Of a DNA stretch of 64,000 nucleotides, positions 2,996-3,936 are shown in pieces. Below the pieces are notes generated by a model, which saw nothing but the letters and a program-made list of their open reading frames with translations, made no database searches and was not told the origin of the DNA. Source of the DNA: Gordius albopunctatus (lineage: Eukaryota); the NCBI GenBank assembly GCA_964276515.1, contig OZ193909.1, forward strand, positions 19,592,001 through 19,656,000, written 5' to 3'. Both the position numbers and the translations under genes were made by a program. How positions within the stretch are numbered: the stretch's first letter is position 1; the number at the start of each line of letters is the position of its first letter.

Positions 2996-3936
2996 TTAAA
3001 GCACACACAGATAGCCAATATACCCTAAGCCAGAAAGTATTACAAACGGTAAAAGGGAACTTCAAATAAACATCAGTAAAAGGTTGTATCGTACGCGTGG
3101 GTATCTTCTTCGAAAGAGTAAGAACAACAGCTAAACCATAATACCGTAAATGTTCCTAAGAATTTCACTATATCTTACAACCACTTTTTTACGCTATTAT
3201 CGTTTCTCTCGCGCAGTGTAAACCTCTGCTACTCGTTGCTACAAAATTTCTCGCGTAATTAACATGTCACAAATTCTTATGCATATTTTATAATAGTTTC
3301 TATGCATGTTGGTAATTTTGAAAAATAAAACAAGAGTTAGGGGGATATCCCATTTGGGACTCTCCCTTCTCATGTTGTTCTTACTCTTTCGAAGAAGATA
3401 CCCACGCTAAATCATAACACAACTATTAAAACATAAAACATTATAATAGCTAAATACTCGGCTATAAAAATCATAGCAAAATACCCAGAGTAGTACTCTG
3501 TGTTAATACCAGATACTAACTCAGATTCCCCTTCTATTAGATCATATGGTGTACGATTAGTTTCTGCTAGGCTACAAATTAAGAAACTAATAAACATAAT
3601 GCTAAAGACAATAACTAAAGGAAAAACACACACTTCAAAATCAGAGAACAACATTCTCACAACACCTATGGCTACAAGCAAAATAATAAAAGAAAGAGGT
3701 AGTTCATACGATAAAGCTTGAGCCACCGCTCGTATGGCTCCTAACATCGAATATTTTTTGTTAGATGTCCAACCAGACAAAATCAAAACATACACCCCCA
3801 GCCCTATCAAGACAAGTAGGGCTACTAATAAGATATCCACTTCTTGAGCGAAAGATGCTTGGCTCAGTACAAATTCAAAAAGGACCAAATAAAGTACTAG
3901 GGCTGGGGCAGCCATTCATGGATGCCATCAAGCTGT
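2996..3936 (-). pseudogene. nad1: NADH dehydrogenase subunit 1, 5'-truncated and interrupted (NUMT)
   Basis: SGWTSNKKYSMLGAMRAVAQALSYE...LAETNRTPYDL.EGESELVSG.NTEY (3915-3412); C-terminus FRSSYPRVRYNLLLMFIWSSLLP with TAA at 2998-2996. Confidence 0.95.
3095..3407. repeat. Perfect 35-bp inverted repeat with both arms coding in nad1
   Basis: 3095-3129 GCGTGGGTATCTTCTTCGAAAGAGTAAGAACAACA is the exact reverse complement of 3373-3407. Confidence 0.95.

Follow-up and report, generated by a model that had tools for sequence, protein, structure and literature searches.

What becomes of a long coding palindrome once the gene that carries it has left the mitochondrion? Such palindromes, perfect inverted repeats with both arms coding, were published for nematomorph (hairworm) mtDNA by Mikhailov et al. 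2019 (PMC6649704). In the parts of that paper that we consulted, their mean spacer is given as 37 bp, deletion is described as a route of loss closed to coding copies, and it is left open how hairworms cope with palindrome instability and what keeps the arms identical; the text seen does not discuss nuclear copies. We analyzed a window of 64,000 nt from Gordius albopunctatus (GCA_964276515.1, contig OZ193909.1), in which a nuclear copy of nad1 holds the perfect arms of such a palindrome 243 nt apart. The questions are what lies between the arms, what was lost there, and whether the hairpin had a part in it.

The copy belongs to a nuclear mitochondrial fragment (NUMT) of a Gordius-like hairworm mitogenome at 422..4885, about 3.3 kb long when two inserts are left out, which comprises the 3′ part of cob, tRNAs, rrnL, rrnS, and most of nad1. 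The cob part (422..862, plus strand; PF00032) opens the NUMT, whose left end lies at about 422. On the minus strand follow rrnL (1107..1653), parts of which were matched by Rfam LSU models, rrnS (2217..2588), part of which was matched by an Rfam SSU model, and two pieces of nad1: a C-terminal piece from LFLLFRSSYPR to the stop (2996..3129) and a middle piece with an open frame (3373..3936; PF00146), whose top ~90 nt are the 3′ arm of an N-terminal 106-bp palindrome. Hairworm mitogenomes have the same order of cob (+), then tRNAs, rrnL, rrnS, and nad1 (−), according to PMC10380579. Nematomorpha supplied the best 5 of 1841 nad1 matches and the best 5 of 2281 cob matches, headed in both cases by Gordius sp. 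VVA-2019 (77% for nad1, 82% for cob). Both ends of the fragment are truncated, a hAT element interrupts nad1, and LINE and transposase remnants lie beyond. The mitochondrial genes are thus collinear, have nuclear DNA on both sides, and are disabled, distinct from present mtDNA, and found at lower depth.

This last contrast comes from contigs of runs X1, X2, X3, X4, and X7 among 19 public runs (the remaining 14 had shares of at most 0.09). None of the 19 was listed as an RNA run, which has no bearing on expression. Contigs with zero differences to the window occur at depths of 218–227 in X1 and 537–680 in X2, and contigs about 88% identical to it at 674–816 and 4,066–24,057, respectively, where depth is a rough guide. 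We read the former as the NUMT and the latter as present-day mtDNA. Only 3 of 133 residues that are invariant across five hairworm proteins are altered in the NUMT, which amounts to about 1% divergence on the nuclear side. A transfer into an insect host genome was also considered and is unsupported, as the repeat family described below and the mitochondrial-like contigs co-occur in runs of two organisms. Relative to the mitochondrial-like contigs, the NUMT has indels at 2746 (21 nt missing), 2797, 2891, and 3897 (6 nt missing, within the N-terminal nad1 arm); these small indels are not located at hairpin centers. One 3,868-bp contig of X1 (depth 861) carries only the stretch 2904–3061, at 95% identity and thus nearer to the window than the mitochondrial-like contigs, and we read it as a NUMT piece within a multicopy stretch.

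Positions 3095–3129 and 3373–3407 form an inverted pair of 35 nt that is 100% complementary across a spacer of 243 nt. It ranks first among the inverted pairs in 1–12000, and about 5e-11 such pairs are expected from the base composition of the window. On the minus strand under code 5 (invertebrate mitochondrial), one arm reads SVGIFFESVSTT and the other LLFLLFRSSYPR; in coding sense, 3095..3129 is the outer 35 bp of the 3′ arm of a 53-bp nad1 hairpin and encodes the RxxxPR motif, and 3373..3407 is the outer 35 bp of its 5′ arm. Codon positions pair 1-1, 2-3, and 3-2 in this central stem, and the N-terminal stem pairs likewise, which makes the two palindromes phase 1. A preliminary description of the locus had reported the perfect arms, their readings including LFLLFRSSYPR, and the codon phase shared with the N-terminal palindrome, and all of this holds. 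At 35 bp, the arms exceed the 15 bp by which perfect repeats within mitochondrial protein genes, with both arms coding, are called coding palindromes, and all four of their differences from the stem of Gordius sp. (below) sit on both arms. Their spacing departs from that of known cases, with 243 nt in the window against 1 nt inferred for the mitochondrial source, and the palindrome is neither located in mtDNA nor translated. Because the copy is truncated, interrupted, and ~88% identical to the mitochondrial-like contigs, we count it as a relic of a nematomorph coding palindrome, nuclear and noncoding. Active upkeep of perfect arms in the nucleus was considered and rejected, since at about 1% divergence the chance of no change in 70 nt is about 0.5. 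An exact 24-nt pattern of the arm had no matches in metagenome contigs.

The DNA between the arms is a nuclear interspersed repeat, so the preliminary description was right that foreign, non-nad1 sequence occupies the center of the palindrome. It had placed the insert at 3147–3372 (~225 bp), which is too short. Other copies of the repeat, 87–95% identical, begin at 3128–3130 in 6 of the 31 rows among the matches listed (X1, X2, and X3), with differing letters before that point, and at the other side 3372 is the end point for 13 contigs from three runs among the matches listed, with mixed flanks after it (agreement 0.55–0.61). With copies starting at 3128–3130 and ending at 3372, the insert is the whole spacer, 3130..3372, apparently with both natural ends (243 bp, or 242 if base 3372 is mitochondrial). 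Three modules can be told apart. The left module (3130..3254) is of moderate copy number, with pieces 87–95% identical and depths of 1,500–3,000 in X1. The middle (3255..3313) is variable, at single-copy depth, and skipped or replaced in other copies, some of which join 3252–3255 directly to 3317–3319 in the same orientation (two contigs in X1, three in X2). The 59-bp terminal module (3314..3372) is high-copy, with a G+C-rich stem-loop at 3341–3366 and its natural end at 3372, and peaks at depths of 36,895 in X1 and 196,276 in X2 with mixed flanks. A blast search of the insert against the 64-kb window gave no copy, the best other match being a weak AT-rich one at 54808–54885 (E 3e-4, 72%), and searches with the insert ends and short motifs gave only matches at chance level. 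The repeat family may already appear in the supplements of 10.1101/2024.06.11.598342.

What stood between the arms in the mitochondrion can be approached from published proteins. For each protein, we determined the longest perfect stem that any choice of codons permits, using a greedy restart search whose lengths are lower bounds. At residues 243–278, the nad1 protein of Gordius sp. permits a stem of 53 bp around a 1-nt gap, and the outer ends of this stem match those of the window's repeat. The four other hairworm nad1 proteins have no comparable stem listed at this site, and none of 20 control nad1 proteins, chosen among 115 non-hairworm matches listed, exceeds a stem of 32 nt. The 53-bp stem has only two codon solutions, which force 34 of the 35 outer letters. 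Figure 1A of PMC6649704 likely draws this repeat for Gordius sp. The window differs from the forced stem by four transitions, at 3098, 3101, 3113, and 3125, each present on both arms; with these four paired changes against Gordius sp., the window copy keeps an older state of the nad1 stem. All four are silent in the RxxxPR arm and change amino acids in the other, which reveals which arm dictates. The same protein further permits stems of 106 bp with a 24-nt gap (residues 21–99) and of 36 bp with a 38-nt gap. N-terminal stems are widespread: all five hairworm nad1 proteins permit one of 101–133 bp along with an overlapping 36-bp stem (residues 1–13 with 26–37), and that of Chordodes permits an additional 69-bp stem. 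Palindromes of this kind are readable from protein sequence alone.

When the window is compared with the Gordius-forced stem, 31 of 35 outer positions match on both arms and only 6 of 18 inner ones do. The distance from the conserved E to the R of the motif tells the same: a 37-nt center between the arms gives 47 residues, exactly as in Gordius, the closest relative, in which this distance is 47. These observations strongly indicate that a hairpin tip of 18+1+18 nt is gone, symmetrically to within 1 nt. The source hairpin would have had arms of 53 bp and a 1-nt loop, so that each arm lost 18 nt. Base 3372 fits the repeat and the stem alike, and this ambiguity means that 36–37 nt are missing and 242–243 bp are inserted, with losses of 18 and 17–18 nt on the two arms and a junction homology of 0–1 nt. 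On both arms the junctions lie within the stem, 18 bp below the tip, flanked by A (3129) and T (3373). At 13 of 15 positions, the start of the insert (3130–3144) matches, on the same strand, the mitochondrial DNA at 3406–3420 just beyond the far arm; 0.25 matches of this kind are expected window-wide, two were found besides the self match, and the match does not predict the observed junction.

The preliminary description had pictured the event otherwise, with arms of 35 bp, a surviving loop of 16 nt that restores normal spacing and contains one in-frame TAG, and an insert of 225 bp that entered at the junction of arm and loop with nothing lost. Part of this stands, in that a 16-nt center restores the reading frame and gives an E-to-R distance of 40 residues, within the range of 39–47 in five hairworm proteins, and tblastn pairs the resulting GIMV* with GGVVS. 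The closest relative nevertheless requires 37 nt, and copies of the repeat cover 3130–3146, so that this stretch, including the TAG, is repeat DNA. We take the GIMV* reading, and the tblastn extension with it, to be a chance resemblance of the repeat to GGVVS. The mitochondrial loose ends described next also differ from the 16 nt and extend the stem instead, and the ~1% divergence of the NUMT's own is too small to have converted a mitochondrial center into these letters. Loss-free entry at such a loop is, in our judgment, close to negligible in probability, and the junctions inside the stem with 36–37 nt deleted replace it.

The mitochondrial-like contigs (~88% identical) end at 3124 and at 3378–3382. 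The assembly graphs behind the public-run contigs presumably used a word length of 31 letters, and graphs of this kind are expected to break where a repeat shares the outer ends, which accounts for these stops. Several of the loose ends carry letters further inward. In X4 (two contigs), 11 of 12 inward letters, compared by eye, match the forced inner letters and read F-S-Q-H where Gordius has F-L-Q-H. In X1, a loose end merged from two contigs (agreement 0.88) gives 17 letters plus base 3372, of which 14 of 18 match by eye; it reads G-S-I-V-S-M against G-G-V-V-S-M in Gordius, and eight inward letters in X2 agree with it by eye. Pieced together in this way from the protein and the loose ends, rather than read as a single continuous mitochondrial DNA sequence, the source hairpin would, on strong indications, have had arms of 53 bp and a loop of 1 nt. 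The merged X1 loose end at 3372 tracks the inner arm over 18 nt before diverging, and perhaps it represents a second NUMT that broke at the very tip of the nad1 hairpin.

Hairworm palindromes are described as breaking assemblies, with drops in coverage, in the parts of PMC6649704 consulted, and an assembler may likewise have broken at the palindrome of the window and joined its arms through the repeat. In keeping with such an artefact, no contig that bridges either junction of arm and insert was found among the matches listed from the public runs, and in both X1 and X2 the contig that includes the insert's middle switches at 3348 to a second repeat copy, inverted and 87% identical, where 3349–3372 would be expected (depth 130 in X1 and 586 in X2). 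Since the middle joins this inverted copy, it may belong to another allele or locus; a nested insertion in the terminal stem-loop on a second allele, heterozygous in X1, and a separate locus both fit the data. Against a misassembly, pieces of the insert with 0–1 differences tile 3149–3339 in X1 at the depth of the zero-difference NUMT flanks, and the unique middle of the insert has depths of 239 (X1) and 586 (X2), equal to those of the NUMT flanks (218–227 and 537–680), although summed contig depth is not copy number. The junctions also fall at the natural ends of the element and at mirror positions of the stem with an overlap of 0–1 nt, unlike a misjoin through shared sequence. The NUMT, the arms, the borders of the insert, and its repeat nature are established, and we consider an artefactual join very improbable.

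The nature of the inserted element was judged from its ends. It has neither terminal inverted repeats (TIRs) nor a target site duplication (TSD), which sets it apart from cut-and-paste MITEs. The ends of canonical Helitrons (HLE1), 5′ TC and 3′ CTRR after a stem-loop, occur on neither strand of 3130–3372, and while the flanks here are A and T, as for insertion at an A|T step, the consensus flanks of other copies past 3372 begin with A in all three runs. A closer likeness is to HINE/DINE-1 and HLE2 elements, as described in the parts of PMC4067079 and PMC11417382 consulted: the repeat resembles them in lacking target duplication and TIRs, in its variable interior, and perhaps in a conserved terminal stretch of ~60 bp with a stem-loop and in T-rich flanks on one strand. 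On the last two traits, it offers a conserved high-copy module of 59 bp and, with regard to a T|T target, T-rich minus-strand flanks at the 3372 end with variable flanks at the 3130 end. It differs from them in that the window copy lacks the subterminal inverted pair of 11–18 bp, with only one 7-nt pair with one mismatch when the first 20 starts were compared with the last 90 nt (one copy, not a family consensus), and in that the terminal stem-loop at 3341–3366 falls short of significance (z −1.2; 29 of 200 shuffles do as well). The stretch 3138–3200 does fold as an imperfect hairpin on the minus strand (z −5.8, 0 of 200 shuffles as good). The HINE and HLE2 papers, in the parts seen, report no modification of the target, whereas the site in the window lacks 36–37 nt. 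Our best guess, at roughly even confidence and without a claim of class membership, is a nonautonomous rolling-circle element; the missing Helitron ends and subterminal pair weigh against it.

Taken together, we consider it probable that the nad1 palindrome was extruded in the nucleus and cut across its stem, and that the 243-bp repeat now replaces the 37-nt tip; this concerns one locus with two hairpins. In the proposed sequence of steps, the nuclear copy of nad1, no longer coding, would extrude its palindrome as a hairpin. In the folded stem, both junctions would correspond to one and the same A|T step, each on its own strand. Because the junction A|T steps pair in the folded hairpin, a single cut 18 bp below the tip would explain the mirror symmetry and free the tip, and a complete small mobile element would be joined at the break with no target duplication. 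We modestly favor one coupled event. The other order, in which a symmetric deletion between the AT steps came first and the element then entered the center of the remaining 70-bp palindrome, likewise requires a hairpin. In the mitochondrion, loss of the tip would be lethal for nad1 and the arms would be kept matched; in the nucleus, nothing would remove such a loss.

The outcome could also have come about with no role for the hairpin, if the element inserted into one arm at an unremarkable T-rich site and a deletion on its flank afterwards stopped at the mirror position by chance. The forced inner letters of the stem do offer a TT step beside the 3372 junction, which is the target of HLE2/HINE elements, and hairworm genomes are rich in transposons, of which the window is full. 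Chance would have to end the two arms within 1 nt of mirror positions, about 3 in 100 by a hand estimate for deletions of up to 100 nt; in addition, the element seems to retain both natural ends, so that the deletion had to spare it exactly. We regard this course of events as unlikely. The break may instead have preceded or accompanied integration, with fragments of mtDNA cut at hairpins being ligated into a nuclear break and the repeat serving as filler. The right end of the NUMT in a hairpin loop would suit this, as would the X1 loose end that departs after 18 nt of the inner arm like a second NUMT broken at the tip, although that end is merged from two contigs and uncertain. The two nad1 pieces, on the other hand, keep their collinear order and share one orientation, and a filler with both of its natural ends fits transposition better than patch capture, which makes a break of this kind rather improbable. 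Our argument from position for hairpin breakage was made after the data had been seen.

The other large breaks of the NUMT bear on this argument as well. A nonautonomous hAT element occupies 3937..4876, with perfect 20-bp TIRs, an 8-bp TSD at 3929–3936 and 4877–4884, and a PF05699 match (E 1.6e-20). It also contains subterminal GATCC-rich repeats and a remnant of the hAT dimerization domain. Beyond it, on the minus strand, 4877..4890 comprises the second TSD copy, position 4885, at which the N-terminal arm ends, and the right end of the NUMT (4885–4890) at the start of the 24-nt loop. The window thus tracks the 3′ arm of the N-terminal palindrome to its last base, 4885, and homology is gone within five further bases of the loop; no 5′ arm is present in the window. 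The hAT element inserted 1 nt from the inner end of the 3′ arm; had the 5′ arm been lost before then, a hairpin could not account for the insertion. At the left end in cob (~422), there is no long palindrome, and the longest permitted stem is 20 nt. We therefore rejected the idea that all breaks of the NUMT lie at hairpins, as no cob stem longer than 25 nt is permitted in any of five hairworm proteins for pairs up to 420 nt apart. Three of the four large breaks (two inserts and two ends) fall at the centers of the two nad1 palindromes, which cover about 80 of 3,310 nt by a hand estimate, a count made after the fact. Two of these three share one place and may not be independent.

A broader claim would be that a rolling-circle-type element used the intrastrand stem as a duplex target and clipped its tip, and that hairworm NUMTs generally break at the centers of coding palindromes. 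We consider this doubtful. If true, hairworm mitochondria would be actively tolerating fragile sites in the form of their coding palindromes, and NUMTs would record, genome-wide, both palindrome breakage and ancestral arms.

Viewed against known systems, the locus combines familiar parts. It has in common with the nematomorph coding palindromes of PMC6649704, as seen in part, a perfect nad1 inverted repeat with both arms coding, phase 1, and arms that change together between lineages, and its source stem is present in the published protein of Gordius sp.; it differs in being nuclear and noncoding, with the tip lost and an insert present. NUMTs and transposon insertions are ordinary. This one resembles NUMTs with later transposon insertions, being a truncated, collinear mitochondrial fragment that carries indels and a hAT insertion and lies amid LINEs and DNA transposons. 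It differs in that the centers of two long coding palindromes are the sites of three of the four large breaks, one of which is symmetric. The human palindromes known as PATRRs offer a further parallel: in the parts of PMC4255720 and of the review PMC4940405 consulted, their symmetric central deletions with minimal junction homology are ascribed to processing while the arms stay paired. The nad1 palindrome likewise broke at its center, with equal loss from the arms and minimal homology. PATRRs, as described there, are AT-rich, hundreds of base pairs long, and join another chromosome, whereas the palindrome here, 107 bp and from a mitochondrial coding sequence, took up a small repeat with both arms left in place. 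It works like a PATRR but is not a member of that group, as it is not a long AT-rich palindrome that mediates translocation. We found no report of hairworm NUMTs or of nuclear breakage of their palindromes in the open-access literature, nor of Helitron insertion into hairpins combined with target deletion. Palindromes, NUMTs, transposon insertion, and symmetric deletion are each known singly, and their combination is unreported in the open-access literature searched.

As a single locus, this is a pseudogene with an insertion. Its wider interest is that a NUMT offers a natural control, in which identical DNA resides outside the mitochondrion and escapes selection, and that both long nad1 hairpins in this one are broken at their centers, one of them symmetrically. 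If such breakage holds across the NUMTs of the genome, folding and breakage of the palindromes do happen in vivo, and the mitochondrion has to eliminate or mend the damage. This can be tested by computation alone, and the question of how hairworm palindromes survive becomes testable on NUMTs.

The remainder of the window is rich in mobile elements. A weak cob-like tblastn match at 25751–25891 (E 0.001, 34%) is probably due to chance. Two LINE copies with endonuclease and reverse transcriptase lie at 7485–10488 and 11823–15311 and are 68–70% identical; the second is split at about 13177–14113 by an element ending in poly(A), relatives of which lie at 18780–19166 and 40414–41068. Long inverted pairs of foldback or MITE type are present at 39381–43648 (arms of ~790 bp, 89%), 52692–54285 (206 bp, 90%), 59503–59981 (86 bp, 91%), and 24756–25016 (interrupted, ~80 bp), and a remnant of a THAP9/P-like transposase lies at 35040–35822.
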